NCBI GenBank assembly: GCA_013214025.1 | Contig: JABSRN010000006.1 | Coordinates: 96,715 to 160,714 of the forward strand | Length of the DNA stretch: 64,000 nucleotides | DNA from: Polyangiaceae bacterium | GTDB taxonomy: Bacteria; Myxococcota_A; Polyangia; Polyangiales; Polyangiaceae | Direction: 5' to 3' | Shown: positions 6,196 to 59,677 of the stretch, piece by piece | How positions within the stretch are numbered: the stretch's first letter is position 1 | Layout of the letters: each line of letters starts with the position of its first letter | The notes under the pieces: model-generated | Databases searched by the model: none | What the model saw: the letters and a program-made list of their open reading frames with translations, nothing else | Told to the model about the DNA's origin: nothing | Program-made: the position numbers and the translations under genes

Positions 6196-6912
6196 ATGAG
6201 CGCGAACATCATGATTACAGGCATCAGCCGAGGCATCGGCCGAGCGTTGGCCGAACACTGCTTGGGGCGCGGGGATGCCGTATTCGGCATCAGCCGAAGT
6301 TCCGTGAATCTCACGTCTCCTCCCGGTACCCTGAGAACAGTTCAGCACGACCTGTCTGATCTCGACGGCATTAAGACCCAACTGTTCGCACTACTGGACG
6401 GCCAACGCGAGTTGGACTTGCTCGTATTAAACGCGGGCATACTCGGTCCTATCCGCGACATGGTCGATACCCCGCTGAGCGATATCCGGCAACAGATGGA
6501 AGTGAACACCTGGGCCAACAAGACGATTCTCGACGGCTTGTTCAACAACGGCGTCCGGGTGCGACAAGTCGTTGGGCTGTCGTCCGGCGCAGCGGTGAGC
6601 GGCAGCCGGGGATGGGGAGGCTACGCGCTGTCCAAAGCAACCTTTCTCATGATGCTCAAGCTGTACGCAGCGGAAATCCCTGACACACATTTTTGCTCCT
6701 TGGCTCCCGGCTTGGTGGATACAAGTATGCAAGACTACCTGTGCGGTCTCGAAGCGAGCTACGGCGCAAAATTCCCGACCGTGGCGCGAATTCAGAGCGC
6801 CCGGGGCACGGACGGCATGCCTTCGCCTGAACAGCTCGCGCCTCGCTTACTGGACAAAATCGGAGAGCTATTAAAGGAGCCGAGCGGATCTTTTATCGAC
6901 ATCCGTCACTAA
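6196..6912 (+). CDS. Short-chain dehydrogenase/reductase (SDR)
   Basis: It has an ITGISRGIGRALA TGxxxGxG-type cofactor motif and a YALSKA YxxxK catalytic motif. Confidence 0.8.
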   Translation: MSANIMITGISRGIGRALAEHCLGRGDAVFGISRSSVNLTSPPGTLRTVQHDLSDLDGIKTQLFALLDGQRELDLLVLNAGILGPIRDMVDTPLSDIRQQMEVNTWANKTILDGLFNNGVRVRQVVGLSSGAAVSGSRGWGGYALSKATFLMMLKLYAAEIPDTHFCSLAPGLVDTSMQDYLCGLEASYGAKFPTVARIQSARGTDGMPSPEQLAPRLLDKIGELLKEPSGSFIDIRH

Positions 6913-9994: not shown

Positions 9995-10213
9995 GATGTG
10001 CCTGCTGAAGTCTCGAGAGGTGGATAAGAAGGCTACCGCCGCCGATACGAGGGTGTCCAACTTCTGATACCCGGAACGACATCCAATTCTTCCCTGATGG
10101 GAAGCGAGCAGTGACCCTACTGCCGAGGCCGCGCGACCTACACCCCGGGGCACGGACGGAGAGATCCGTCCGTGGATTAGCCTAATAGAGCCAGTCCGCT
10201 GAGCCAGCGCGGG

Positions 10214-17521: not shown

Positions 17522-18150
17522 CTCAAGAGCTGGTTCAGCTCGGCCGACAAGCTTCGTTGGACGCGGCGGGTGGAGCTGCTCACGAACGCTATTGCTCCGG
17601 GACAACACGTGCTCGAGCTCGGCTGCGAATACAGGACGCTGACTGCTGCGCTTGCCGATCGGGAACCCAGTATAACCCCGGCAGATACGTCTGTCGCCTA
17701 CGTCCGTCAGGCGGCGCGGAAGGTTGAGTTTGAACACGTCAAGTTCTTGACGCTGAACCCAAGCGCGATGCCTTTCAAAACCGACAACTTTGATCTCGCC
17801 GGCGACATCTCTTTCATCTATCGCTGCCGGCCGGGTGTGCGGACACAATTGGCCCGTGCACTGCGACCCGGCGGTCGCGCGCTGTTCGCGGAGCCCAACC
17901 TGCTGAATCCACACATCGCCACCCGACAACCCACGCGACTCCGCCGAGATCACTACCAAAAGGCCTTCGGTTGGCTTTGCGCCACCACATTCTGTAGGCG
18001 GGATTCGGTAGTGTCACTATCACGCCCTTTGACTTTCTCCACCCTGGGCTGCCTCCCGAGTTCGTTGCTCTGGGGGACGATTGGGCAAGAAAACTTGAGC
18101 GGGTTCCACTGCTCCGAGAACTCCGCGGCTCGTTAATTATTGACACGCGG
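17522..18150 (+). pseudogene. Class I SAM-dependent methyltransferase, frameshifted with an in-frame TAG
   Basis: Frame 2 reads ..GQHVLELGCEYRTLTAALA (degenerate motif I) ..LRPGGRALFAEPNLLNP. The C-terminal part AGFGSVTITPFDFLHPGLPPEFVALGDDWARKLERVPLLRELRGSLIIDTR is in frame 1, directly after TAG 17995..17997. The intermediate segment RDSAEITTKR is in the third frame. Confidence 0.6.
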
Positions 18151-18200
18151 CTCAGAGCTCAGAGCTTGCCAAGCGCGCGGGACAATGACACATTTTCTTC

Positions 18201-18545
18201 ATGCTCGAACTCATCTGCAAACGGACCTGAAGCACCTGTCGCAAAGCGGTCGCTTTGCTGGAGGAAAACGCTATCGAGTATCGGTACCGCGACTACACCC
18301 AGGAGCCCCTCAGTCGGACTGAGCTCAAAAAAGTGTTTCAGCTGCTGGGAAAAAAGCCGGCCGAGCTATTGCGAAAAAACGACAAGGCCTACAAAGAATT
18401 AGGGCTCACCGGCGAAGAGTCCAATGCAAAACTGATCGCCCATATGGCGGAGCACCCCACCCTGCTCCAACGTCCCATCGGTATATTGAATGGCAAGGCA
18501 GCCGTCGGTCGGCCTGTTGAGAATTTGCTCGAACTCATCAAGTAG
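18201..18545 (+). CDS. ArsC/Spx-family (arsenate-reductase-like) redox protein with predicted selenocysteine (UxxC) at codon 10
   Basis: ATG 18201 is the first start after the upstream in-frame stop. Reading through TGA 18228..18230 gives MLELICKRT-U-STCRKAVALLEENAIEYRYRDY..LLRKNDKAYKELGL..HPTLLQRPI... The TGA aligns with the catalytic Cys of the ArsC/YffB N-terminal motif (..NCDTCRKA / ..PACGTSRN). The ORF track only reports the 3' part (18255..18545), in the same frame. Confidence 0.75.
18235..18264 (+). promoter_or_regulatory. Bacterial SECIS-like stem-loop downstream of UGA 18228
   Basis: The upper stem GCAAAGC (18241..18247) pairs perfectly with GCUUUGC (18252..18258). The apical loop is GGUC (18248..18251). 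Possible lower pairs are C18240-G18260 and U18239-G18261 (with U18259 bulged), and CCU 18235..18237 with AGG 18262..18264. The loop G-U lies about 21-22 nt from the U of UGA. Confidence 0.65.
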
Positions 18546-18624
18546 CGGTGCCTCTCCCGGTCCAAATCCCCAGGGGTCGTCGGGATTCTATTTGCTCTAC
18601 GGATCTAAAGCGCTAGAGTGCCCA

Positions 18625-19914
18625 ATGTCGATGAGGGCCATAACTACTCAGACGCTTGGGAACGATCGCGAGCCCAATCAACCAACGCCCAATCAGCCAA
18701 CACTTGCGTCGGCCTACCAACGCGTGCGCGCCGGAACCGAACACCTCAGCGCCCCGCTGAGTGCCGAGGATCAGACGGCCCAGAGCATGCAGGACGCCAG
18801 CCCCACCAAGTGGCACCGGGCACACACCACGTGGTTCTTCGAACAATTTGTCCTGGCGGTTCACGACCCCAGTTATGTACCGGACGCGCAGTCGTCGAAG
18901 CTGTTCAACAGCTACTACAATAGCGTCGGCACGCCCTTCCCGCGACACCAACGCGGGCTGTTGACGCGACCCAGTAGCGCTGAAGTCACGACGTACCGCC
19001 AGCGAGTGGACCGCGCGATGGTCTCGCTCCTGCGGGGAGACATCTCAACGTCGTTGGCTAGCATCGTTGTCTTAGGCTTCCACCACGAACAACAACACCA
19101 AGAGTTGTTGTTGACCGACGTCAAACACCTGTTGTCGCACCACCCAGATCAGCCAGCCTACATGAAGGTTGCAGCGCCTCCCGACGCCGACGAACGACCG
19201 CTCACCTACGCCCGCATACCCGGCGCCTGCTATCGGCTGGGCCATGCGGGCAAGGGCTTCGCCTTCGACAACGAAGGACCGCTTCACGACCGACTGATTG
19301 ACGAATTCGACATTGCTAGCCGACTGGTTTCCGAAGCGGAATACCAAGACTTTATCGATGACGGAGGCTACAGCCGACCCGAACTCTGGCTGAGCGCCGG
19401 TTGGGACGCCGTCCGGAAGCATGATTGGACAGCGCCTCTGTACTGGACGGCAAGCCGTGAGCAGTATCTATACACCATGAACGGTGCTCGGCCACTAGGC
19501 CGCCGCAGCCCCGTGACGCACGTCAGTTACTACGAGGCCGACGCCTATGCGCGTTGGTCGGATGCACGGCTGAGCACCGAATTTGAATGGGAGGTAGCAT
19601 GCCGCCACTTGAAGGAAACGCCTCCAATTGGGGGGGGGCCAGCGCTGCACCCGGAGACTCAGCAGACCGGAGCTGACTTTTTCGGCAGCTGTTGGCAATG
19701 GACTCAGTCCGACTACGCGCCCTACCCTCGCTTCCGCGCGTCGCCGGATGCCGTCGGCGAATACAACGGCAAATTCATGAGCGGGCAGTACGTATTACGC
19801 GGAAGCAGTGCGCTCACTCCGGACGGCCATGCCCGCCCGACCTACCGCAATTTTTTCCCGCCCACGGCACGCTGGCAATTTAGCGGCATTCGCCTAGCTA
19901 GAGACGTGCCTTGA
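18625..19914 (+). CDS. egtB: Ergothioneine biosynthesis sulfoxide synthase EgtB (DinB_2 + FGE-sulfatase domains)
   Basis: It has ..DASPTKWHRAHTTWFFEQFVL.., HHEQQHQELLLTDVKHLL, and a C-terminal FGE-like domain (..YYEADAYARW.., ..YVLRGSSALT..). I placed the start at ATG 18625. Confidence 0.85.
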   Translation: MSMRAITTQTLGNDREPNQPTPNQPTLASAYQRVRAGTEHLSAPLSAEDQTAQSMQDASPTKWHRAHTTWFFEQFVLAVHDPSYVPDAQSSKLFNSYYNSVGTPFPRHQRGLLTRPSSAEVTTYRQRVDRAMVSLLRGDISTSLASIVVLGFHHEQQHQELLLTDVKHLLSHHPDQPAYMKVAAPPDADERPLTYARIPGACYRLGHAGKGFAFDNEGPLHDRLIDEFDIASRLVSEAEYQDFIDDGGYSRPELWLSAGWDAVRKHDWTAPLYWTASREQYLYTMNGARPLGRRSPVTHVSYYEADAYARWSDARLSTEFEWEVACRHLKETPPIGGGPALHPETQQTGADFFGSCWQWTQSDYAPYPRFRASPDAVGEYNGKFMSGQYVLRGSSALTPDGHARPTYRNFFPPTARWQFSGIRLARDVP

Positions 19915-20903
19915 GCCTCAAATTTACGCCAACCGCTCCTTCCCAACTGAGCCCATCCGGCATTCTCGATCTGAGTCCCGAGGCGGGTGACTTGATCGCC
20001 GACGGCCTGGCGGGTCTGCAGCGATCGACCAAGACGCTCCCCAGCAAATACTTTTACGACAAGCGCGGGAGCGAGCTCTTCGAAACGATCACCACGCTGC
20101 CCGAATATTACGTCACTCGTACCGAACTCGACATCATGGCGGAGAGTGCGTCGGAGATGGGCGCACTGCTTGGCGAACACGGGCTGCTAATCGAGTTTGG
20201 TTCAGGATCCGGACAAAAGACACGTGAGCTACTCAGCGCCCTGCCAGAACCTGCCGGATGCATCCTGATCGACATCAGCAAGAGCGCATTGAGCGGCAGT
20301 ATCGAAAAACTCGAAGAAGCGTTTCCGTCGCTGCCCATCTTCGGTGTCTGCGCCGACTACACCCGTTCGCTCCAATTGCCAGAGGTCGGTACTAACGCGA
20401 AACGGCGCATCGCCTACTTCCCGGGCAGCACCCTAGGTAACTTCTCGAACCATGAGGCCCGAGTCTTTCTGCAGCGCACCGCAGCGCTCCTGGGGCCGGG
20501 CGGAGCACTACTGTTGGGTGTGGACCGGGTCAAAGCAGTAGGCCTCTTGGAAAGGGCCTACGACGACGCACGGGGGGTCACCGCAGCCTTCAATTTCAAC
20601 TTGCTGACTCAACTCAACGCCAACGGCGCCAACTTCGTTCTCGATCGCTTTCGGCATTCCGCGGTGTTCAACGCCGCTGAGTCGCGCGTCGAAATGCACT
20701 TGGTGAGTCAGGTCGAGCAGACGGTGGAACTGGGTAGCGCCACCATCCGATTCGACGCGGGCGAGTCGATCCGAACAGAGATGTCCCACAAGTACACACT
20801 AGAGGCTATCCGTGAACTCGCCGGCTCAGCGGACATGACCCTCGAACACCACTGGTCCGACAAGCAAGATTGGTTCTCCGTGTGTTATCTGAGTTGCCGC
20901 TGA
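19911..20903 (+). CDS. egtD: L-histidine N-alpha-methyltransferase EgtD
   Basis: It has ..LPSKYFYDKRGSELFETITTLPEYYVTRTELDIM.., IEFGSGSGQKT. The TTG start overlaps the egtB TGA (TTGA, 19911..19914). Confidence 0.85.
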   Translation: MSLKFTPTAPSQLSPSGILDLSPEAGDLIADGLAGLQRSTKTLPSKYFYDKRGSELFETITTLPEYYVTRTELDIMAESASEMGALLGEHGLLIEFGSGSGQKTRELLSALPEPAGCILIDISKSALSGSIEKLEEAFPSLPIFGVCADYTRSLQLPEVGTNAKRRIAYFPGSTLGNFSNHEARVFLQRTAALLGPGGALLLGVDRVKAVGLLERAYDDARGVTAAFNFNLLTQLNANGANFVLDRFRHSAVFNAAESRVEMHLVSQVEQTVELGSATIRFDAGESIRTEMSHKYTLEAIRELAGSADMTLEHHWSDKQDWFSVCYLSCR

Positions 20904-30473: not shown

Positions 30474-30814
30474 CCGAAGCACTCGAAATTCTCGCGGGAG
30501 CGCTGGTGCTGCTAGGCACTTTTTTTTGCTTCACCGGTGGCATCGGCGTGCTTCGCTTCCCCGACTTTTATACGCGCCTGCATGCCGCCGGGATGACGGA
30601 CTCGATGGGGGCAGCTCTGATACTGGCTGGATTGGCCGTGCATCAGTGGACCGATTATGGCGCGGGCCTCAACCTGGGCCGCCTGGCTATCATTTGGTTC
30701 TTCCTGAACATTACCAGCGCTGCCTCGACCCACGCATTGGTGAAAGCAGCGTACGCAGGCGGCGTCCGGGTGAATGGGCCGACGGAGGATCGACGCAGTG
30801 TCGTTCCCAATTGA
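30470..30814 (+). CDS. mrpG: Cation/proton antiporter subunit G (MrpG/MnhG)
   Basis: It has ..GTFFCFTGGIGVLRFPDFYTRLHAAGMTDSMG.. The start overlaps mrpF as ATGA. Confidence 0.8.
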   Translation: MTEALEILAGALVLLGTFFCFTGGIGVLRFPDFYTRLHAAGMTDSMGAALILAGLAVHQWTDYGAGLNLGRLAIIWFFLNITSAASTHALVKAAYAGGVRVNGPTEDRRSVVPN

Positions 30815-31631
30815 AATCATCCTGTTCGGGTTCTTACTGGTGATCACCGTCACCATCATCCGGCTGCGGTCCTTATTCGCCGCCGGCATGATGACAGGCG
30901 CCTTCAGCCTATTGTCCGCTGGACTATTTACACTCATGGATGCCGTCGACGTCGCCTTCACCGAGGCAGCGGTCGGTGCAGGCGTTTCGACTATCCTCTT
31001 CTTGTCAACGCTGTCGATTACGAAGAAGCAAGAACGCAAGAGCCCCAACTTGCACTGGCCGGCCCTGGCGGTGTGCCTTGTGACCGGAGCGGTCTTGGTT
31101 TACGGAACACTGGATATGCCGGCCTACGGCGATCCTAACGCGCCCATCCACGCACACGTCGCCCCCCGTTATATCAATGAGTCTCCGAAAGAGATCGGAC
31201 TGCCCAACTTTGTGACGTCTGTGCTTGCGAGCTATCGGGGCTACGACACCTTTGGCGAACTCGGCGTCATTTTCACAGCTGGGGTCAGCGTCATGTTGCT
31301 ACTCGGCGGTGCGCCCGCCGGAGTCGCCGGAGCGACCCGCCGCGAGGAACCCAGCTTCGACGACGAAGAGCGCCCGGACTTCGACGACGAAGAGTGGGAC
31401 GGCTCCGAGTCAACCCCCGGCGATGAATCCGCGATCGCCCAAGGCTATTCCGCGACCGACAATGGCGAACGCGCCAGCGAATTCCCCGCCGAAAATGACA
31501 ACGCCGAGAGCCAACCCAGCTCGGCGCCGAGTATGTCAGATGAGCCTCCCCCACCGAATACTGGTGAAGCTCAATCCAATCCAATAGGGTTTAGGACAGG
31601 GGCCGAACCCACGGGCGGAGAACGATCATGA
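30798..31631 (+). CDS. MrpA C-terminal-like / DUF4040 (MbhD/E-like) subunit with a long acidic low-complexity tail
   Basis: GTG 30798 is preceded by GGAGGA; ATG 30774 is an alternative start. The TM core has ..DAVDVAFTEAAVGAGVSTILF.. and ..VTSVLASYRGYDTFGE.. The last ~100 aa are rich in D/E/S/P. Confidence 0.65.
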   Translation: MSFPIEIILFGFLLVITVTIIRLRSLFAAGMMTGAFSLLSAGLFTLMDAVDVAFTEAAVGAGVSTILFLSTLSITKKQERKSPNLHWPALAVCLVTGAVLVYGTLDMPAYGDPNAPIHAHVAPRYINESPKEIGLPNFVTSVLASYRGYDTFGELGVIFTAGVSVMLLLGGAPAGVAGATRREEPSFDDEERPDFDDEEWDGSESTPGDESAIAQGYSATDNGERASEFPAENDNAESQPSSAPSMSDEPPPPNTGEAQSNPIGFRTGAEPTGGERS

Positions 31632-32149
31632 GTGCCCCCCGTAAACAACAGGTCCATGAGCTGCTCGTCCTCCGGGCTACCGCGAAACTCCTGATCCCGT
31701 TCATTTTACTCTTTGCTCTGTACGTACAGTTCCACGGCGACTTCGGTCCGGGAGGCGGCTTCCAGGCCGGCGTGATCTTCGCCGCCGGCCTGATCTTGTA
31801 CGGTCTGGTTTGGGGACCCGAAGCTCTCAAGCGTGTGGTTCCACCGCGGGTAGTGGAAGCGTTGGTCGCGTCTGGTCTGCTCCTCTATGGCGGCGTCGGA
31901 ATTTTTTCGCTCGGAAGGAGAAAAAACTTTCTCGACTACGCCGCTCTCGATCCACAGCATCCTCAACACGGTCAACACCTCGGCATCTTGCTCGTGGAAC
32001 TCGGCGTCGGCGTGACCGTCTGCTGCGTTATGCTCGCCATCTACTTCGCCTTTGCAGATCGCGCTCTCTACCACGCGGCGTATCACCCCACAGCCAGTGC
32101 CGTGCCGGCTCAGAGCCCCTTCGACCAGCCCCGGGAGTCGAAACGATGA
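31628..32149 (+). CDS. mrpB: Cation/proton antiporter subunit B (MrpB/MnhB)
   Basis: It has ..LIPFILLFALYVQFHGDFGPGGGFQAGVI.. The start overlaps the previous gene as ATGA. Confidence 0.8.
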   Translation: MSAPRKQQVHELLVLRATAKLLIPFILLFALYVQFHGDFGPGGGFQAGVIFAAGLILYGLVWGPEALKRVVPPRVVEALVASGLLLYGGVGIFSLGRRKNFLDYAALDPQHPQHGQHLGILLVELGVGVTVCCVMLAIYFAFADRALYHAAYHPTASAVPAQSPFDQPRESKR

Positions 32150-32511
32150 GCGGCTACTTAGGACTCTGGCACTACTGGGCGACCATCGCCTTGTCCATGC
32201 TCGGGCTCTACACGCTCATTGCGAAGAACAACTTGGTCAAAAAGATGATGGGCCTGAGCATATTCCAGGTCTCCGTCATCATGCTGTACGTATCGATGGC
32301 CAAGGTCACAGGCGGCACCGCGCCGATCCTGCGAACCGACATTGAAAACCCCGTTTATTCCAATCCGCTCCCGCACGTATTGATGCTCACGGCGATCGTC
32401 GTCGGGGTGGCCACCACCGCCGTCGGCCTCTCGTTGATAGTGCGCATCCGAGAAGAATACGGCACCAGCGAGGATGACGAGATTCGTGCCATTGACCGGG
32501 AGGCGATGTGA
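32146..32511 (+). CDS. mrpC: Cation/proton antiporter subunit C (MrpC/MnhC, NuoK-like)
   Basis: It has ..LIAKNNLVKKMMGLSIFQVSVIMLY.., ..PLPHVLMLTAIVVGVA.. The start overlaps mrpB as ATGA. Confidence 0.8.
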   Translation: MSGYLGLWHYWATIALSMLGLYTLIAKNNLVKKMMGLSIFQVSVIMLYVSMAKVTGGTAPILRTDIENPVYSNPLPHVLMLTAIVVGVATTAVGLSLIVRIREEYGTSEDDEIRAIDREAM

Positions 32512-34073
32512 ATCACCTCCCAGTACTCCAGGTCATAGTTCCCCTACTGGCTGCTCCGATATGCCTGTTACTTCGCCATGGCGGACTCGCGAGGGTTCTC
32601 GCTACCTGCGTCGCTTGGAGCAGCTTTGCGATGGCTCTCATCTCCCTGGACCAGGTCGCCCAGCTCGGCACGCTGACTTACTACCTAGGCGGCTGGGAGC
32701 CCCCTTGGGGCATTGAGTACCGAATCGATCGCACCAGCGCACTGGTACTGGTTGTAGTGACAGGCATAGCTTCCGCGGTGATTCCCATTGGCCCGGGAGA
32801 AAAGAGCTATCAGATCCCCGGGCACCGCCACGCCATGTACTACGCGGCGTTTCTCCTGTGTCTGTGCGGCTTGCTCGGTATGACCGTGACGGCCGACGCC
32901 TTCAACGTGTTCGTGTTTCTCGAAATTTCGTCGTTGTCGACCTACACACTGATCGGCCTCGGCTCCAACCGACGAGCACTGACTGCCGCCTTCAACTATC
33001 TCATCATGGGAACGGTCGGCGGCACGTTTTACTTGATCGGCGTGGGCTTACTCTACCAAATGACCGGCAGCCTCAACATGGCCGACATCGCCACTCGGTT
33101 GAGCGAAATGCAGAGCACCCGGACCGTCGTGGTGGCCTTTGCGTTCGTCACTATGGGGCTGGCGGTAAAACTGGCCGTGTTCCCCGTCCACCAATGGCTG
33201 CCCAACGCCTACGCCTACTCTCCCAGCGCCGTATCGGCATTCCTCGCGGGTACGGGCACCAAGGTCGTCTACTACCTGCTCGCTAGGATTTTGATGACCG
33301 TGTTCGGCGCCGCTTTCGTGTTCGACATCCTGGGTTTCGACCGCCTGTTGATGCCCATATCGTTGGTCGCCATGTTCGCGGGGAGCGTGGCCGCGATCTA
33401 CCAAACCGATCTCAAACGGTTGCTCGCCTATTCCTCCATCGCGCAAGTCGGATACCTAACCTTGGCGCTGAGCCTCGGGACCACGGAGGGCATCGCGGCT
33501 GGGCTACTACATATGTTCAACCACGCTCTCATGAAGGGTGGTTTGTTCCTTGTGGTGGCGTGCATCGTTTGTCGCACAGGCTCTTCGCAGATCTCTGAGC
33601 TCGGCGGGCTCGCCCGTCGCATGCCCATGACTTTTGCCGCCCTGATTGTCGGCGGCTTTGGGTTGATCGGTGTGCCCAGTACCGTTGGCTTCATCAGCAA
33701 GTGGTACCTAGTTAGTGCCGCACTCGGTTCCGGCTCTTACGTAGTCGCCGCGCTGATTCTAGCCAGCTCCCTGCTCGCGGTGGTCTACGTCTGGAAAATT
33801 GTGGAGGCCTGCGTTTTCGGAAAAGCACCGGAAGGCGCACCGCAGGAGGAGGCCCCCCTGGGTATGCTAATTCCCACTTGGGCCCTGCTAGGCGCCACAT
33901 TGGTGTTCGGCTTATCCGCCGACTTTACCACCCATGCAGCGACCAGCGCCGCAGAGCAGCTGTCAAACGGCGTCAAGACCGCCAAGCTCATCTCCCGTGA
34001 ACGGCGACAACTACACGCTCACACCCTGGCAGAACCGAATGCTGTCACCCCAGCCCAAGAGAGCGGGCAATGA
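32508..34073 (+). CDS. mrpD: Antiporter-like subunit D1 (MrpD / NuoM-N family)
   Basis: This 521-aa polytopic protein has ..FPVHQWLPNAYAYSPSAVSAFL.., ..KRLLAYSSIAQVGY.., ..HALMKGGLFL.. Confidence 0.8.
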   Translation: MNHLPVLQVIVPLLAAPICLLLRHGGLARVLATCVAWSSFAMALISLDQVAQLGTLTYYLGGWEPPWGIEYRIDRTSALVLVVVTGIASAVIPIGPGEKSYQIPGHRHAMYYAAFLLCLCGLLGMTVTADAFNVFVFLEISSLSTYTLIGLGSNRRALTAAFNYLIMGTVGGTFYLIGVGLLYQMTGSLNMADIATRLSEMQSTRTVVVAFAFVTMGLAVKLAVFPVHQWLPNAYAYSPSAVSAFLAGTGTKVVYYLLARILMTVFGAAFVFDILGFDRLLMPISLVAMFAGSVAAIYQTDLKRLLAYSSIAQVGYLTLALSLGTTEGIAAGLLHMFNHALMKGGLFLVVACIVCRTGSSQISELGGLARRMPMTFAALIVGGFGLIGVPSTVGFISKWYLVSAALGSGSYVVAALILASSLLAVVYVWKIVEACVFGKAPEGAPQEEAPLGMLIPTWALLGATLVFGLSADFTTHAATSAAEQLSNGVKTAKLISRERRQLHAHTLAEPNAVTPAQESGQ

Positions 34074-35614
34074 ATCCCCAACTACTCATCGCCTTGGCCC
34101 TGCTCACGCCCACCGCGGGCGCTGGACTGGTCGCGCTCACCGGTCGCTCCCCCAATCGACGCGATAGCATGACGATCCTGGCGACAATCTTGACGGCATT
34201 CTTCGTCTGGAATCTGGCGCCCATCGTCGCCGACGGCGGCCGTCCCGAACTCGTCTTGTTCGAGATCGTGCCCGGGCTGGAAATCGCCTTTGGCCTCGAG
34301 CCCCTGGGCATGCTGTTCAGCCTAGTCGCGGCGAGCCTCTGGGGGCTGACGAGCGTCTACGCGATTGGATATATGCGTGGGCACAATGAGGAGAACCAAA
34401 CCAGGTTCTTCGTGTGTTTCGCGTTGGCAATATCAGCGGCTCTCGGAATCGCCTTCGCCCGGAACCTGATCACGCTGTTTCTCTTCTACGAGCTACTGAC
34501 GTTCTCCACCTACCCCCTGGTAACCCATCACGGCACCGCCCAGGCCAAAAGAGCTGGCCGGATTTATCTAGGCATTCTGGTCTCCACTTCGGTGGCGTTC
34601 CTACTCTTTGCCATCCTCTGGACCTACCACCTGACCGGCACCACCGAGTTCCGACCGGGAGGGATCTTGGCGGGCAAGGCCGACAACATGACCGTCGGCA
34701 TCCTACTGGCCCTCTTCGCCTTCGGCACCGGGAAGGCCGCGTTGATGCCCTTTCACCGGTGGCTACCCAACGCCATGGTGGCGCCGACGCCGGTGAGCGC
34801 GCTTCTACACGCGGTAGCAGTAGTCAAAGCCGGTGTGTTCACCGTGCTAAAAATCGTGACCTATATCTTCGGCATCGATCTTTTGGCGGACACGGGCATG
34901 TCTGTGTGGCTCATGTATGTCGCTGCCACCACCATCGTGTTCTCCTCAATCGTCGCTATCACGCTCGATAATTTGAAGGCGCGACTCGCCTATTCCACCA
35001 TCAGCCAACTCGCATACATCGTGCTGGGCGCGGCGCTCGCCACCAAGTCGGGCATCTTGGGGAGCGGCATGCACATCGCCATGCACGCCGTCGGAAAAAT
35101 CACGCTGTTTTTCTGCGCCGGTGCCATTTACGTCGGCGCCCACAAGACCCTCGTCAGCGAGCTCGACGGCTTGGGCCGCAAGATGCCATTCACCTTTGGA
35201 GCATTTTTCATCGGCTCCCTTTCGATCATCGGCTTGCCGCCCTTCGGCGGGGCCTGGAGCAAGTGGTTCCTGGCCCTCGGCGCCGCCGACGGTCACCAAT
35301 ACGTGTTCACCGCAGTATTCATGCTCAGCAGCATCCTCTCCATCGCCTACCTCATGCCGGTGGTCGGGCGCGCGTTTTTTCTTAGCCCCGAGCTGGAGGC
35401 GCCCGACGACCAATTAGCGGCGGCGCACGCAGCCGACGAACCCGGAGACTCAAGCAGCGACGGAGACTCAAGCAGCGACGGCATCTTCGCCAACCTGCAC
35501 GAGGCTCCGCTCTTGTGCGTGCTACCGCTGTGTTGCACGGCCGCTGGTTGCCTCGCCCTCTTCTTTCTGGCAGAGCGAATCCACTCCCTACTGACTCCGA
35601 TTGTGGGGGGCTGA
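34070..35614 (+). CDS. Antiporter-like subunit D2 (MrpD / NuoM-N family)
   Basis: It has ..MPFHRWLPNAMVAPTPVSALLHAVAVVKAG.., ..ARLAYSTISQLAY.. The C-terminal tail has an 18-bp tandem duplication (DSSSDG x2, 35444..35479). Confidence 0.8.
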   Translation: MNPQLLIALALLTPTAGAGLVALTGRSPNRRDSMTILATILTAFFVWNLAPIVADGGRPELVLFEIVPGLEIAFGLEPLGMLFSLVAASLWGLTSVYAIGYMRGHNEENQTRFFVCFALAISAALGIAFARNLITLFLFYELLTFSTYPLVTHHGTAQAKRAGRIYLGILVSTSVAFLLFAILWTYHLTGTTEFRPGGILAGKADNMTVGILLALFAFGTGKAALMPFHRWLPNAMVAPTPVSALLHAVAVVKAGVFTVLKIVTYIFGIDLLADTGMSVWLMYVAATTIVFSSIVAITLDNLKARLAYSTISQLAYIVLGAALATKSGILGSGMHIAMHAVGKITLFFCAGAIYVGAHKTLVSELDGLGRKMPFTFGAFFIGSLSIIGLPPFGGAWSKWFLALGAADGHQYVFTAVFMLSSILSIAYLMPVVGRAFFLSPELEAPDDQLAAAHAADEPGDSSSDGDSSSDGIFANLHEAPLLCVLPLCCTAAGCLALFFLAERIHSLLTPIVGG

Positions 35615-35925
35615 TGGCAACTTCCGACTCCCCCAACGAGCCGCCCCGGTCGGACAGTGAGGGTCCAAGCACCGAGGCAGAATCCTCCTCTCAGCCCTTT
35701 CTCGATAGAACATCGACCCACAACGCCATCTTCTACATTCTGGCCGGTCTGTGTGTTGGGCTATTCGCCGGCGATGCCCTTTACCACAAGCACACTCACT
35801 TCGAATTCGAGGGTTGGTTTGGGTACTACGCCTTCTTCGGATTCTTCGCCTACATGGGCATTGTTTTCATTGCCAAGGCATTGCGCACCGTTCTGAAACG
35901 CGAGGAGGACTACTACGGTGAATAG
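35614..35925 (+). CDS. Small membrane protein embedded in the mrp-like cluster
   Basis: This 103-aa protein has an acidic/Ser-rich N-terminus followed by two hydrophobic helices (IFYILAGLCVGLFAG, YYAFFGFFAYMGIVFIA). Its start overlaps the stop of D2 and its stop overlaps the start of D3. Confidence 0.55.
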   Translation: MATSDSPNEPPRSDSEGPSTEAESSSQPFLDRTSTHNAIFYILAGLCVGLFAGDALYHKHTHFEFEGWFGYYAFFGFFAYMGIVFIAKALRTVLKREEDYYGE

Positions 35926-37606
35926 TCTGCCTCCCGGATTCATTCTAATCCTCGGCGCCTTCCTGATCCCGTTCTTGAAGGGACGGGCTCGACAAGCGCT
36001 CATTCTGGCATTGCCCTGCTTGAGCCTCGGGCACCTGCTCAGTCTGCCCAGCGATCACATCGTGACCGCGCAGATGTTCGACTATCAGCTGGCTCCGATA
36101 CGCGTCGACAAGCTCTCCCTAGTCTGGGGTTATGTCTTCCACATCGCCGCTGGACTGACCGCGCTCTATTCGGTCCATGAAAAGAACAGCCTCGGTCATG
36201 TCGCCGGTCTGTCCTATGCCGGCAGCGCGATCGCGGCAGCCTTCGCCGCGGACTGGATTACGCTGTTTGTTTTTTGGGAACTCACCGCCATCACCAGCGT
36301 CTTCCTGATCTGGGCACGTCGCACCAAACGCGCGTACACCGTCGGACTCCGTTACCTGCTCATTCAGGTCGGCTCCGGTGTCATTCTACTGGCCGGGGTG
36401 CTGATCCATGTAAGCCAAGGTGGCTCCCTGTTGATTCATCGCATGGGGGTGGACAGTCTCGGCGGCAAACTCATCTTTCTCGCATTCGGTATCAAGTGCG
36501 CCTTCCCCCTGCTGCACAACTGGCTGCAAGACGCCTACCCAGAAGCCACCGTCAGTGGTGCCGTCTTTTTGTCTGCGTTCACCACCAAGCTGGCAATCTA
36601 CGCGCTCGCCCGCGTCTTTCCAGGTACAGAAATCCTGATCCCCATCGGTATCACGATGACGCTGTTCCCTATCCTTTTCGCAGTGATCGAGAACGATCTA
36701 AGACGAGTATTGGCCTACAGCCTCAACAATCAGTTGGGATACATGGTCGTCGGCGTTGGCATCGGCACCGAACTCTCCCTCAACGGCACGGCCGCGCACG
36801 CCTTCGCGCACATTCTCTACAAGGGCCTCCTGTTCATGGCCATGGGAGCGGTGCTGTTTCGAGTCGGGACCGTCAAGGCCAACAAGCTCGGCGGGCTGTA
36901 CAAGTCCATGCCTTGGACGACGGTGTTTTGCATCATCGGTTCCTTGTCGATTTCCGGCTTCCCGCTGTTTAGTGGATTTGTCACCAAGTCGATGACCCTC
37001 ACCGCCGTCAGCGAAGCCCACCTGGCAATTTACGCCGTGCTGTTACTCATCGCCTCCGCTGGCGTGGTCGATCACTCCGGCATCAAGATCCCCTTCTTCG
37101 CGTTCTTCGCCCACGACAACGGACACAGAGTCAAAGAGGCCCCGCTCAACATGCTGCTGGCCATGGGCGGGGCTGCCGCTCTCTGCATTGGTCTCGGGCT
37201 CTACCCAGCTCCGCTTTACAAGATCCTGCCCTACCCGGTTGACTACGCTCCCTACACAGTTTCCCACGTCGTAAATAGTCTTCAGCTTTTGTTGTTCGCG
37301 GCGTTGGCCTTCGGCATTCTGTGGCGGACGCGAATTTATCCCCCTGAGATCGACGCGATCAACCTCGACACCGATTGGATTTACCGTAAAGCAGCGCCAC
37401 CAGTGGTCGTCGCCATCGGGCGCGTTTGCGCCGCGATCCACAAGGCTGTCGTCGGGACCGGTGCGCAGCTCGGCAAGGCCGTGCTTGGCGGCCTCGAGAA
37501 AACCCACGCCCCCCCCGGGGTCATGGGCGAACCCTGGGGAACCGGCGCCACGTCCCTCTGGGCAGCAGCGCTGCTCGGCTTCTGTCTGATGATCTACTAC
37601 TTATAG
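35918..37606 (+). CDS. Antiporter-like subunit D3 (MrpD/MrpA/NuoL family)
   Basis: This 562-aa polytopic protein has ..FPLLHNWLQDAYPEATVSGAVFLSAFTTK.., ..RVLAYSLNNQLGYM.., ..HILYKGLLFM.. Confidence 0.8.
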   Translation: MNSLPPGFILILGAFLIPFLKGRARQALILALPCLSLGHLLSLPSDHIVTAQMFDYQLAPIRVDKLSLVWGYVFHIAAGLTALYSVHEKNSLGHVAGLSYAGSAIAAAFAADWITLFVFWELTAITSVFLIWARRTKRAYTVGLRYLLIQVGSGVILLAGVLIHVSQGGSLLIHRMGVDSLGGKLIFLAFGIKCAFPLLHNWLQDAYPEATVSGAVFLSAFTTKLAIYALARVFPGTEILIPIGITMTLFPILFAVIENDLRRVLAYSLNNQLGYMVVGVGIGTELSLNGTAAHAFAHILYKGLLFMAMGAVLFRVGTVKANKLGGLYKSMPWTTVFCIIGSLSISGFPLFSGFVTKSMTLTAVSEAHLAIYAVLLLIASAGVVDHSGIKIPFFAFFAHDNGHRVKEAPLNMLLAMGGAAALCIGLGLYPAPLYKILPYPVDYAPYTVSHVVNSLQLLLFAALAFGILWRTRIYPPEIDAINLDTDWIYRKAAPPVVVAIGRVCAAIHKAVVGTGAQLGKAVLGGLEKTHAPPGVMGEPWGTGATSLWAAALLGFCLMIYYL

Positions 37607-39093: not shown

Positions 39094-40803
39094 TTGGCTG
39101 TTACAGAATTAATCGAAGCATTCTCCGCGCTCCAACTCGGGGCTGGTAGTCCTCTAGATTTCCTGTTCGAACCCTGGTCGTTCCACTTCGGCAAAGGCGA
39201 TATCTTCGCCAAGAACCGGTGGAACAGCATCATGAACGGCGCCAAAATCGGCACAGCGTTTGTCGCCGCCGGTTTCTTGCTTCTGGAGATCCGTGCGCGC
39301 CGTCTCGGTTCGCCAATCCCCAAGGTTTGGGCGAAACGGATCTACTTGGCCCTAGTCGTATTCTCGACCTGGCTTTACTTCGACGGTTTCAACCCCAACG
39401 TCCGGTACGTCAACTACTACCACCGCCACGAGCTGTTTCACTACTACCTGGGCAGCAAGTACTTCAAAGAAGTCGGGTACCCCCGGCTCTACGAATGTGC
39501 AGCGGTCGCAGAAACAGAACTCGTCGGCAAGAACCGCATGAAGGATCGCGAAATTCGCGACCTCGGCGTCAACCTCGTCAAGCCGATGTCGAAGACGTAC
39601 ATCTTCGACATCCCAGAGAATTGCAAAGATCACTTTTCCGGCGAACGGTGGGACGCCTTCAAGGCAGACGTCAAATGGATCGAGCAAAGCGCGCGAGGTC
39701 AATACTGGAAGGACATGTTCAAGGACCACGGCTACAACCCGCCCCCGGTCTGGACGATGACCGGACATCTGCTGAGCAGTATCGATGTAGCGTCGGACAG
39801 CTTCTTCAAGAAACTCGCCCTGCTCGACGTGATCTTGCACATAGGCGTAATTTCCATGCTGGGTTGGGCCTTCGGCTTCCGCGCAATGATGATCGGCGCC
39901 GTGTTTTGGGGGTGCAACGCGCCCGCCAACTTCTATTGGACTGGCGGCGCCTTCATGCGCATGGACTGGATCTTCCTTCTGGTCAGCGCCACAGCTTTCG
40001 CCAAGAAGCGATACTTCGCCCTCGCCGGAGCTGCCCTCGCCTGGTCCGCACTGCTGCGGGTGTTTCCAGCGATCTTATTCGGTGGTTGGGTCGCAATGGG
40101 AGCTTGCTTCTGGCTCAAACATCGCCGCGCGATGCCCGAGCTCAAGCGGGCTCTTGGCGGCGTCATCGTCGCTGTCGGAATTCTCGTACCCGCCAGCATG
40201 GCGGTCTGCGGCCCGGACTCTTACGCCCAATTCAAGCACCACATCTCGACCCACAAGAGCACACCGCTGACGAACCACATGGGTCTAGAAACCATCCTGA
40301 CCCACAACTGGGAGGGGCGGATGCGATTTTCCCGGGACGATCGCTTGGACGACGGCTTTCAGCCTTGGAAGGATGGACGCACCCAACGCAAGGAGGAGCG
40401 CCGCCCGCTCTTCTATCTGGTCTGGGCGCTCACCGCGGGTTGGATCGGCTGGGCGCTGCGGCGTACGCGATTGATTTGGATTGCGATCCCCATGGGGGTG
40501 CCCATGGTCATCGCCCTGCTCAATCTGACTTGTTATTACTATTCGGTATTCATCCCCATCGCGGCACTGGCGACAGTGCGCCGGAGCCTCGGGCCGGCAT
40601 TGCTGACCACCGCCGGAGCGAGCCAGGTACTGTTGGGTCCGCCCAATTGGTCAACGTTCTATTGGATCGACGACCGCTACACCGCGCTCAGTTACCTCTT
40701 CTGGCTCATGGCGTTACTGACGCTGTACGCCTATTCGCGGCCGCTCACTCCCGAGCGATTACGCGCCTGGTGGGCTGGGCGAGCTGAGCCAAGAGCGAAC
40801 TAA
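39094..40803 (+). CDS. Large polytopic membrane protein, unknown function (possibly GT-C-like)
   Basis: This 569-aa protein has many TM helices and aromatic-rich loops (YYHRHELFHYYLGSKYF, DHGYNPPPVW). The overlapping 522-aa ORF in another frame is Arg-rich and I rejected it. Confidence 0.55.
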   Translation: MAVTELIEAFSALQLGAGSPLDFLFEPWSFHFGKGDIFAKNRWNSIMNGAKIGTAFVAAGFLLLEIRARRLGSPIPKVWAKRIYLALVVFSTWLYFDGFNPNVRYVNYYHRHELFHYYLGSKYFKEVGYPRLYECAAVAETELVGKNRMKDREIRDLGVNLVKPMSKTYIFDIPENCKDHFSGERWDAFKADVKWIEQSARGQYWKDMFKDHGYNPPPVWTMTGHLLSSIDVASDSFFKKLALLDVILHIGVISMLGWAFGFRAMMIGAVFWGCNAPANFYWTGGAFMRMDWIFLLVSATAFAKKRYFALAGAALAWSALLRVFPAILFGGWVAMGACFWLKHRRAMPELKRALGGVIVAVGILVPASMAVCGPDSYAQFKHHISTHKSTPLTNHMGLETILTHNWEGRMRFSRDDRLDDGFQPWKDGRTQRKEERRPLFYLVWALTAGWIGWALRRTRLIWIAIPMGVPMVIALLNLTCYYYSVFIPIAALATVRRSLGPALLTTAGASQVLLGPPNWSTFYWIDDRYTALSYLFWLMALLTLYAYSRPLTPERLRAWWAGRAEPRAN

Positions 40804-57847: not shown

Positions 57848-59677
57848 CTAGCCCCCGTCCACTGGTCCAGAATATGCGAAGCAACGAAACCCAAGGAGTT
57901 CTCCGCGTTTCTGACGCGCCAGCGCGCCCCGCTTGGCAATTCGCACTTCGTTCCGCTCTGTCGCCGCCCAGCTCCCGCCCCGATATACGCGAGCACCGCT
58001 ACCGGCCCCGTAGTCGCTGGATGTCCATTCCGCGACCCCGCCGGACATATCTTGCACTCGCTCCGCGGTATCCCCCGTGGGAAAACTCCCGACGGGGCAG
58101 CTGCCCTCCCGAGTGCGTCCACCAGACCAACAGAGTTGCGTGCCAGGTTCCTGATTCCCCCAGGGAAAGCCAAATGCTCGAACGCCTCCGCGGCCCACCC
58201 ACTCCCATTCCGCCTCCGTAGGCAAGCGGCGCCCGTAAAACTCGCAGTAGCTCGCTGCCTCATCATTGGAGACGCAATTCATCGGGTGACGCAGCCGGTC
58301 GACATGACCGTAGGTAGCCGCCTGATCGCAGGCCACATCGAGTCGACCTCGATGTCCACCCGATGTGCCAAGAGCGCAACCCTGGCTTTCCACGCAATCA
58401 GCGAAATCCCCAGCCGTCACCTCGGTAAACTCCACGCATAGAGCGCTCACTGCCGCACTATTCTTGCTCACACGGAGTGTGAACTGTCCGCCCGCCACAT
58501 AGGCCATATCCCGAGGGCAGATCCCAGGCTGCGCCGCCACCGGAGGCTTCATTCCAGAACTCTGCCCCCGTTGGTGAACGGGCCCCGAGAAAATGGAGAT
58601 GGCAGCCAGAGCGACGGCCAGAACGACAACACCCCCTGCGATCCAAGTACCGCTCGCACCTCGCAGAGAGAGCGCCGGGTTGACCATCTCCGAATCAGAA
58701 AGAGTTTCCTCCAGCGGAGCGTCGGGGGCTTCGGACTGACCCGAGTCAAGAACACCCGCATCTGACGTCCGTACGGAATCTTCCCCGATTCCCAACGCCG
58801 GACCGAGCCCCGCCAGGGCCAGCGATGCGTCCGTGAACCGGCTACCGAGGTCCCGTGACAAACATCGGCGAAACCAAGAGTCGAACCCCCCAGAGAGGGC
58901 CGAACTCCCCCACTCCCGAGCGCGCGAAGAAGCCGGGGGAAGATCATCCAGGACCACCTCACGCAGAATGCCCACAGCCGTGCCACCAGGGTCGTTTCCC
59001 GCCCTCCAATACGATCGCCCTGTAAGCAACCTGAAGGCCAGCAGACCCAAGGCCCAGACATCGGTTCCTGGAAGGATTCGCGAACCGGCGACGGTCTGTT
59101 CCGGAGCCATATATAGCGGAGTCCCGACAGCCGCGGTGTTCGAGAGTCGCGCCTGCGCCAGCACCTTCGCGATGCCAAAGTCCAACAACTTGACTGTGTA
59201 GGGAACGTCAGCACGCAGGGACTTCGCAAGGAACACATTCTCCGGCTTCAAGTCACGGTGCACGATCCCAGCCCGGTGCGCGGCACCCAAGGCGTGGCAA
59301 ATTTGAACAAAAATCCGGTACACTTCCCTCGGCGGAATGTCGCCCCGCTGCCGAACAAACTCGGAGAGGGTCTCGCCCTCCAGAAGCTCCATAACCAGCC
59401 AGGGAATGCCTGAGAATTCATCCACCCCCGCCGCCAACACATGCACAACGTGGTCACTCTGAATCAACGCCCCGACACGGGCCTCCTGAATGAAACGCCG
59501 GCGTTGTTCCGCGTCCTCAACCAACGCCGGATGCATGACCTTCAAAGCCCGCTCGCGCCCCGTACTCAACTGCTCGACGACGTAGACAGCGCCCATGCCG
59601 CCTTCGCTGAGAGGGCGAATGACGCGGTAATCGCCGGCGAACGGCGTGCCTGGTGTGAGAGTGAACGGTACCGGCAT
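57848..59677 (-). CDS. Ser/Thr protein kinase fused through a TM segment to an FGE-sulfatase (SUMF1-like) domain
   Basis: The kinase motifs are GGMGAVYV, ALKVM, HRDLKPENVFL, DFGIAK and APE. The TM segment is IAGGVVVLAVALAAISIF. The FGE-like motifs are RLPTEAEWEW and YRGGSW. Confidence 0.85.
   Translation of the reverse strand: MPVPFTLTPGTPFAGDYRVIRPLSEGGMGAVYVVEQLSTGRERALKVMHPALVEDAEQRRRFIQEARVGALIQSDHVVHVLAAGVDEFSGIPWLVMELLEGETLSEFVRQRGDIPPREVYRIFVQICHALGAAHRAGIVHRDLKPENVFLAKSLRADVPYTVKLLDFGIAKVLAQARLSNTAAVGTPLYMAPEQTVAGSRILPGTDVWALGLLAFRLLTGRSYWRAGNDPGGTAVGILREVVLDDLPPASSRAREWGSSALSGGFDSWFRRCLSRDLGSRFTDASLALAGLGPALGIGEDSVRTSDAGVLDSGQSEAPDAPLEETLSDSEMVNPALSLRGASGTWIAGGVVVLAVALAAISIFSGPVHQRGQSSGMKPPVAAQPGICPRDMAYVAGGQFTLRVSKNSAAVSALCVEFTEVTAGDFADCVESQGCALGTSGGHRGRLDVACDQAATYGHVDRLRHPMNCVSNDEAASYCEFYGRRLPTEAEWEWVGRGGVRAFGFPWGNQEPGTQLCWSGGRTREGSCPVGSFPTGDTAERVQDMSGGVAEWTSSDYGAGSGARVYRGGSWAATERNEVRIAKRGALARQKRGELLGFRCFAYSGPVDGG

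Follow-up and report, generated by a model that had tools for sequence, protein, structure and literature searches.

Introduction

The first report of selenoproteins of the ArsC type came from the Sargasso Sea, under the name 'arsenate reductase, UxxS' (PMC1088965), and the subsequent GOS analysis divided them between the groups 'Arsenate reductase 1 (UxxS)' and 'Arsenate reductase 2 (UxxC)' (Zhang & Gladyshev 2008; PMC2398784). Under the heading 'Arsenate reductase 2 UxxC', supplement file 3 of that analysis (PMC2398784) contains two clear orthologs of the protein described here, JCVI_READ_1093018614276 and JCVI_READ_2161197, which read MLTLICKRTUTTCRKAVALLNEK...PTLLQRPIG... and MQLICTKTUSACRKAVALLDER..., respectively. 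The first of these is 62% identical to our protein over 113 residues (full length), and the GOS orthologs share with it the N-terminus MLxLICKRT-U-xTCRKAVALL and the PTLLQRPIG motif.

Bacterial SECIS elements, the hairpins that let a UGA be decoded as selenocysteine (Sec, U), present their apical loop 16-37 nt from the UGA (PMC10778597), and this loop is small and contains a G (PMC1088965). A preliminary description of the window (the whole 64-kb stretch of DNA analysed here) had proposed that a stem-loop of this kind, likened to the SECIS of the E. coli fdhF gene, serves a UGA at 18228. Conservation in orthologs, covariation and loss of the hairpin in genes with UGC or UGU in place of the UGA support this proposal, and with a probability of about 93% the hairpin at 18241-18258 is a bacterial SECIS that lets the UGA at 18228-18230 be decoded as selenocysteine.

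Results

The gene (18201-18545, forward strand) has an ATG start, 114 codons and a TAG stop at 18543-18545, and shares its frame with the UGA at 18228-18230 (codon 10), which is very probably read as selenocysteine. Its start at ATG 18201 is unambiguous, because an in-frame stop lies four codons upstream. The read-through translation begins MLELICKRT-U-STCRKAVALLEEN..., with the active-site motif T-U-S-T-C (UxxC). The partner cysteine of this motif, Cys13, is encoded by a TGT at 18237-18239 and is invariant in all 76 Sec genes compared below, where TGT and TGC are both used. Across the same 76 genes, the nine codons 5' of the UGA show conservation at the protein level with ordinary synonymous drift. 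A mechanical list of open reading frames gives, in the same frame as the TGA at 18228-18230, a 96-aa ORF that starts at TTG 18255. TGA is an ordinary stop, and the commonest, among the Pfam-supported genes of the window (16 of 28); the genetic code is thus no variant one, and the UGA at codon 10 reflects a local recoding.

When the Sec is written as C, the protein passes the Pfam model PF03960 (ArsC) at 60.6 bits (cutoff 24). The NCBIfam model that fits it best is TIGR00014 (glutaredoxin-type arsenate reductase), at 90.6 bits and under the cutoff of 106.05, while NF041106 yields 17.1 bits against a cutoff of 85, and membership in either family is ruled out by these scores. The closest solved structures, 3F0I and 3RDW, are arsenate reductases of 119-121 aa. 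In an alignment with R773 ArsC (sequence confirmed as identical to PDB 1I9D), Sec10 falls on the catalytic Cys12, and the family-invariant residues R58, R91 and R104 fall on the Arg60/Arg94/Arg107 triad. As judged from its sequence, the product is probably a 114-residue protein of the ArsC (thioredoxin-like) fold that would act as a Sec-dependent arsenate or related oxyanion/thiol reductase, since the arsenate-binding arginine triad is retained.

Homologs were searched for in a collection of 5.8 billion proteins and the best 120 matches were examined. Full-length homologs (111-121 aa) cover the whole query and carry TCSTC at the site, so that the UGA aligns with a cysteine and the reading frame runs on both sides of it. 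About 87 of these best 120 matches are proteins of 94-100 aa that start just after the UGA, some of them named 'arsenate reductase (glutaredoxin)' or 'ArsC/Spx/MgsR family protein', and the window's own contig is annotated in ENA with a 96-aa call (L089 831-1121). Shortened proteins of this class are what one expects from gene callers that start anew behind an in-frame TGA.

At the DNA level, a scan with one genome per GTDB species provided 80 of 185 confirmed loci, of which 79 could be read at codon 10. This codon is TGA in 75 of the 79 and TGC in the other four. The hosts belong to the Myxococcota (Polyangiaceae, Nannocystaceae), Acidobacteriota (Thermoanaerobaculia, Vicinamibacteria), Gemmatimonadota (including Longimicrobiales) and Calditrichota. 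The 75 TGA loci and the window make up the set of 76 Sec genes used throughout; these sequences are related, and counts over them are not counts of independent events. Two Sec-ArsC copies (L003 and L005) lie about 6.6 kb apart on contig CBDFLE010000006.1, from a Candidatus Multivoradales MAG. They are 96% identical across 479 nt, with the UGA and SECIS included, and there is a second duplicated segment of 606 nt; the pair looks like a recent local duplication of the selenoprotein gene.

The minimal hairpin occupies 18241-18258 on the forward strand, within codons R14-K-A-V-A-L-L20. Its 5' arm (GCAAAGC, 18241-18247) and 3' arm (GCUUUGC, 18252-18258) form seven Watson-Crick pairs (-8.7 kcal/mol), a stable upper stem as in bacterial SECIS elements, and enclose a GGUC apical loop at 18248-18251, whose G and U are the presumed contacts of SelB. 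Ten nt (18231-18240) separate the UGA from the stem and 17 nt (18231-18247) separate it from the loop, a distance inside the range of bacterial SECIS elements; the first loop G is nt 21 counting from the U of the UGA. The perfect 7-bp stem with GGUC ten nt past the UGA, and the distance of about 21 nt given for the loop, had therefore been described correctly, letter for letter in the case of the stem.

RNAfold of 18228-18275 returns a stable structure (-15.2 kcal/mol), as the preliminary description anticipated, in which the 7-bp hairpin is extended by lower pairs (U18239-G18260 and CCU18235-37/AGG18262-64, with U18259 unpaired) to span 18235-18264. These further pairs, suggested in the preliminary description, are thus present in the minimum free energy structure of the window but are specific to it: over the orthologs only 65.7% of the corresponding cells are paired, pair 18/45 is broken in 52 of 75 sequences and pair 21/42 in 41 of 75. 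RNAalifold of the 76 Sec genes returns exactly the 7-bp upper hairpin and does not keep the lower stem. The bulged U18259, which had been compared with the bulged U of fdhF, lies 3' of the stem as the second base of Leu20 and is invariant only as the second position of a leucine codon. Lower stem and bulged U are accordingly ruled out as parts of the element.

It had also been argued that a structure so regular is unlikely to arise by chance within a coding region, and on this point the single-sequence statistics do not agree. The 48-nt fold has z = -1.7, with 10 of 200 shuffles folding as well, and a 100-nt context has z = -0.6, while the 18-nt minimal hairpin reaches z = -3.4. The window contains ten perfect hairpins with a 7-bp stem and a 4-nt loop, against 4.6 +/- 1.8 in shuffled sequences. 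In the same shuffle test the bona fide SECIS of E. coli fdhF only reaches z = -0.94, and folding z-scores of single sequences were therefore set aside as uninformative. The hairpin alone is not statistically remarkable, and it is the comparative evidence that carries the case for a SECIS: the element stands above chance because of its fixed position after a conserved in-frame UGA, its conservation in orthologs and its covariation. The nine other perfect hairpins include those at 40490-40507, 10154-10171 and 6274-6291, and six more. One hairpin of the window, CCATGGG-GGTG-CCCATGG, lies 15 nt past a TGA in a nonsense peptide context. An Rfam scan of 17900-18600 at E <= 10 returned no SECIS family and three chance matches only.

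Across the 76 Sec genes a 63-nt region aligns with zero indels, so that the spacing of 17 nt between UGA and loop is invariant. The seven pairs of the upper stem are paired in 99.8% of cells, and the 4-nt loop reads GGUC in 76 of 76. The family consensus of the element is GCAAGGC-GGUC-GCCUUGC, 10 nt after the UGA, with a mean hairpin energy of -10.9 kcal/mol over the Sec forms, and the 18-nt sequence is almost identical at the nucleotide level across at least four phyla.

This conservation extends to positions at which the protein leaves a choice. Within-amino-acid codon entropy is 0-0.45 bit from R14 to L19, against 1.2-2.3 bit where Arg, Ala, Val and Leu are invariant in the rest of the gene. 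Arg14 is CGC in 75 of 75 sequences, Ala16 is GCG in 76 of 76 and Val17 is GTC in 76 of 76, whereas in the remainder of these genes the same codons account for 46% of Arg, 37% of Ala and 40% of Val codons. Similarly, Leu19 is TTG in 70 of 76 sequences (92%), although TTG makes up 10% of the leucine codons elsewhere in these genes. The GGUC loop covers the third position of an alanine codon and an entire valine codon (GCG GTC), yet it is invariant.

Two pairs of the stem covary. At the fifth pair, the window and a Calditrichota locus (L072) have AAA...GCU where the others have AAG...GCC, and G-U intermediates occur in L015 and L039. At the fourth pair, AGG...CUG replaces AAG...UUG in L027, L042 and a Longimicrobiales clade (L052/L065/L076), which couples a K-to-R substitution with a synonymous change in the leucine codon. 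On a neighbour-joining tree the covariant forms occur in five separate places, beside sequences of the common form, which indicates at least five independent compensatory double changes, and L010 has a G-U intermediate as well; the conservation and covariation of the stem that the preliminary description would lead one to expect are thus both found. A mismatch in the stem occurs in a single Sec gene (L074), where it affects the lowest pair. Together, the frozen synonymous sites and the covariation demonstrate that the hairpin is under selection at the RNA level.

Homologs that carry cysteine at codon 10 provide an internal comparison. Eleven such genes were available: the four of the genome scan and another seven retrieved through an exact protein look-up. 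Stem and GGUC are both kept in two of these 11 Cys forms, compared with 75 of 76 Sec forms (Fisher p = 1e-9, for related sequences and uncorrected for phylogeny). The remaining nine are without the stem and/or GGUC: one (L082) keeps the stem with a CGUC loop, and eight have broken stems and/or altered loops, while the peptide RKAVALL is unchanged in most. Synonymous positions of the hairpin are frozen in TGA-bearing genes and drift in the Cys forms. Since the peptide is kept in most Cys forms, part of the nucleotide conservation is due to the protein; first and second codon positions are also constrained in this way, and the case for the RNA is drawn from synonymous sites and covariation only. 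The synonymous freezing and the stem are nevertheless specific to genes that carry the UGA. The two Cys forms with an intact 7-bp stem and GGUC (L081 1501-1839 and L086 1501-1842) have TGC/TGT at codon 10, and their hairpins look like 'fossil' SECIS elements left by recent Sec-to-Cys conversions.

A tRNA search and Pfam scans of 40 large ORFs were negative for selA, selB, selD, tRNA-Sec, fdh and any other selenoprotein gene in the 64-kb window, which contains no tRNA at all. Further scans of the window, for TGA codons followed by a hairpin and for ORFs with redox motifs that read through a TGA, yielded noise only. Across other genes of 89 loci, a search for UGA codons with GGU-loop hairpins produced 24 candidates, all of which were discarded for their nonsense peptide contexts.

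The genes that flank the selenoprotein gene in the window encode an epimerase, a methyltransferase, EgtB, EgtD and an acyl-CoA synthetase and are unlinked to it in other loci. ORF clustering found no real neighbour common to more than five loci, and the larger clusters consist of spurious overlapping frames in high-GC DNA. Directly 3' of the gene (18490-20903, forward strand) lie an EgtB-like gene with an FGE-sulfatase domain and a gene for an EgtD-type histidine methyltransferase (PF10017, 334.8 bits), which look like an ergothioneine-type biosynthesis pair. The EgtB-like ORF, taken from ATG 18490, overlaps the 3' end of the ArsC gene, and its true start may lie further downstream. This adjacency is absent from all 80 other loci and is regarded as coincidental, as the neighbourhood is not conserved. 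Upstream (17570-18136, forward strand), a 188-aa methyltransferase ORF matches Pfam over residues 14-106 only and has an odd C-terminal half; the same call is made on ENA contigs, and the ORF may be degraded or mis-framed. Elsewhere, the window encodes a 609-aa protein with an N-terminal Ser/Thr protein kinase domain and a C-terminal FGE-sulfatase (formylglycine-generating-enzyme-like) domain (57848-59677, reverse strand), an Mrp/Mbh-type antiporter-like cluster with MbhD/MbhE, a NuoK-like subunit and three Proton_antipo_M proteins (30774-37606, forward strand), and also LigA, a DUF4388-DnaJ protein and Ser/Thr kinases. The best matches of LigA are 64-69% identical to it, and those with a named source come from MAGs of Sandaracinaceae, Polyangiaceae, Polyangiales and Myxococcota; in combination with the DUF4388-DnaJ protein and the kinases, this indicates a myxobacterium of the Polyangia type as host.

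Discussion

The arrangement of UGA, spacer and hairpin suggests a mechanism in which, given a host with the Sec machinery, a ribosome nearing the UGA at 18228-18230 would meet the GGUC loop displayed 17 nt downstream on its 7-bp stem. The C-terminal domain of SelB, carrying Sec-tRNA(Sec), would bind this loop, and the ternary complex, thereby tethered at the A site, would allow the UGA to be decoded as selenocysteine and not as a stop. In the resulting protein, Sec10 would stand in for the catalytic cysteine (Cys12 of R773 ArsC) and form the UxxC motif with Cys13.

Other readings of the hairpin and the UGA can be considered. The hairpin might be a passive by-product of the conserved peptide RKAVALL, which forms helix alpha-1 of the ArsC fold, and have no function as RNA, in which case the real gene would be the 96-aa ORF from TTG 18255. 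Such a reading would fit the conservation of the peptide in Cys-form homologs as well, and also the annotation record, in which most of the best 120 matches, and the ENA contig of the window itself, carry the short call. However, it would leave unexplained why the freezing of synonymous hairpin positions is confined to TGA-bearing genes, with drift in the Cys forms, why compensatory changes preserve the stem and why, in 76 genes, the nine codons before the UGA show conservation of the encoded protein; moreover, the 96-aa product would have no catalytic residue aligning with ArsC Cys12. We consider that it has next to no chance of being correct. Barely more probable than this is that the UGA is read through without a Sec pathway, for instance by a near-cognate tRNA for Trp or Cys, with the hairpin as a generic stimulator of pausing or read-through. 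Downstream hairpins can boost read-through in other systems, and no Sec machinery is seen within the window, both of which would agree with such a process. However, the UGA stands exactly at the redox-active cysteine position, the classic Sec/Cys signature, the GGUC loop is itself invariant and equals the loop of fdhF that contacts SelB, the spacing lies inside the SECIS range, and the family has already been catalogued among selenoproteins.

Since the stem-loop is stable, rich in GC and close to the 5' end of an mRNA, it could also be a regulatory RNA of another kind (an intrinsic terminator or attenuator, a site for RNase or an operator bound by a protein, for example) whose proximity to the UGA would be coincidental. 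A terminator is ruled out, as no U-run follows the hairpin on its 3' side and a terminator scan does not flag it on the forward strand. The presence of the hairpin follows the UGA rather than the gene, as it decays in the Cys forms, and its spacing from the UGA is invariant; the whole group of such explanations is extremely improbable. Decoding of the UGA as selenocysteine, directed by a SECIS at 18241-18258, is therefore the reading that we retain.

Beyond the function of the hairpin, its near-identity across phyla could mean that gene and hairpin spread jointly as a cassette by horizontal transfer. Another possibility is that the SelB-binding hairpin and helix alpha-1 (RKAVALL) have come to lock each other in place as a dual code. 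With its UxxC motif, the protein might moreover reduce arsenate through a selenenylsulfide and independently of glutaredoxin, unlike both known ArsC chemistries. A broader reading that combines the cassette or dual code with this UxxC chemistry, and in which the TIGR00014-like UxxC clade would be a third, separately evolved lineage of ArsC-fold selenoproteins, is unlikely.

The main value of the locus is for annotation. Fragments of 94-100 aa that are without the active site are widespread in the public protein collection, and family members are often mis-called as pieces of 94-97 aa. Since none of the selenoprotein-specific NCBIfam models recognises the subfamily, a model built for it would recover many genes in Myxococcota, Acidobacteriota and Gemmatimonadota. 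The precise gene model (18201-18545, with Sec at codon 10) and a family-specific SECIS consensus are by-products of the analysis. In addition, the locus is a clear textbook example of how constraints on protein and RNA overlap: synonymous sites are frozen, compensatory changes occur and Cys forms carry 'fossil' SECIS elements.

Comparison with known systems

The comparison with the E. coli fdhF SECIS made in the preliminary description was accurate as to the GGUC loop, and the fdhF sequence used for it was verified, as it occurs at 100% identity within the fdhF gene of 5419 E. coli genomes. Like the element described here, the fdhF SECIS lies inside the open reading frame immediately 3' of the Sec UGA and presents a GGUC tetraloop on a short GC-rich stem. 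The geometry differs by the 1 nt that had been noticed: counting from the U of the UGA, the loop occupies nt 22-25 in fdhF and nt 21-24 in the window, where it is 1 nt closer. The upper stems also differ, as that of the window is an uninterrupted 7-bp helix closed by C-G, whereas that of fdhF is shorter, is closed by A-U and has a bulged U on its 5' strand. This bulged U has a role in SelB binding, and the window stem has no bulge. The host gene and the lower stem of fdhF are unrelated to those of the window. The window element would act in the manner of the fdhF SECIS without being its copy.

Among ArsC-fold proteins, the window protein has the fold, the U-S-T-C motif and the similarity to members that place it in the GOS group 'Arsenate reductase 2 (UxxC)'. 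However, this group is heterogeneous: its majority type (MGN.VDWGYFRNSUKTC...) matches NF041106 (ArsC_rel_Se_1, 'ArsC family (seleno)protein') at 131.8 bits, and the type found in the window does not. The proteins of NF041106 share with the window protein the ArsC fold and a UxxC motif with Sec in first place, but the window protein belongs to a different subfamily. With TIGR00014 and R773 ArsC it has in common the active-site position, where Sec10 corresponds to Cys12, and the arginine triad, although proteins of the window type score 80-91 bits on TIGR00014 and remain under its equivalog cutoff of 106.05. A GOS UxxS selenoprotein, in contrast, just reaches that cutoff at 106.6 bits. At position +3 the window protein has a cysteine (UxxC), as do Spx-type CxxC proteins, where the UxxS selenoproteins have a serine; with this cysteine, an intramolecular selenenylsulfide could take the place of the glutathione/glutaredoxin relay. 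The selenoprotein family to which the gene belongs has thus been catalogued since 2008, its biology is ordinary, and the understanding of how bacteria decode selenocysteine is unchanged.
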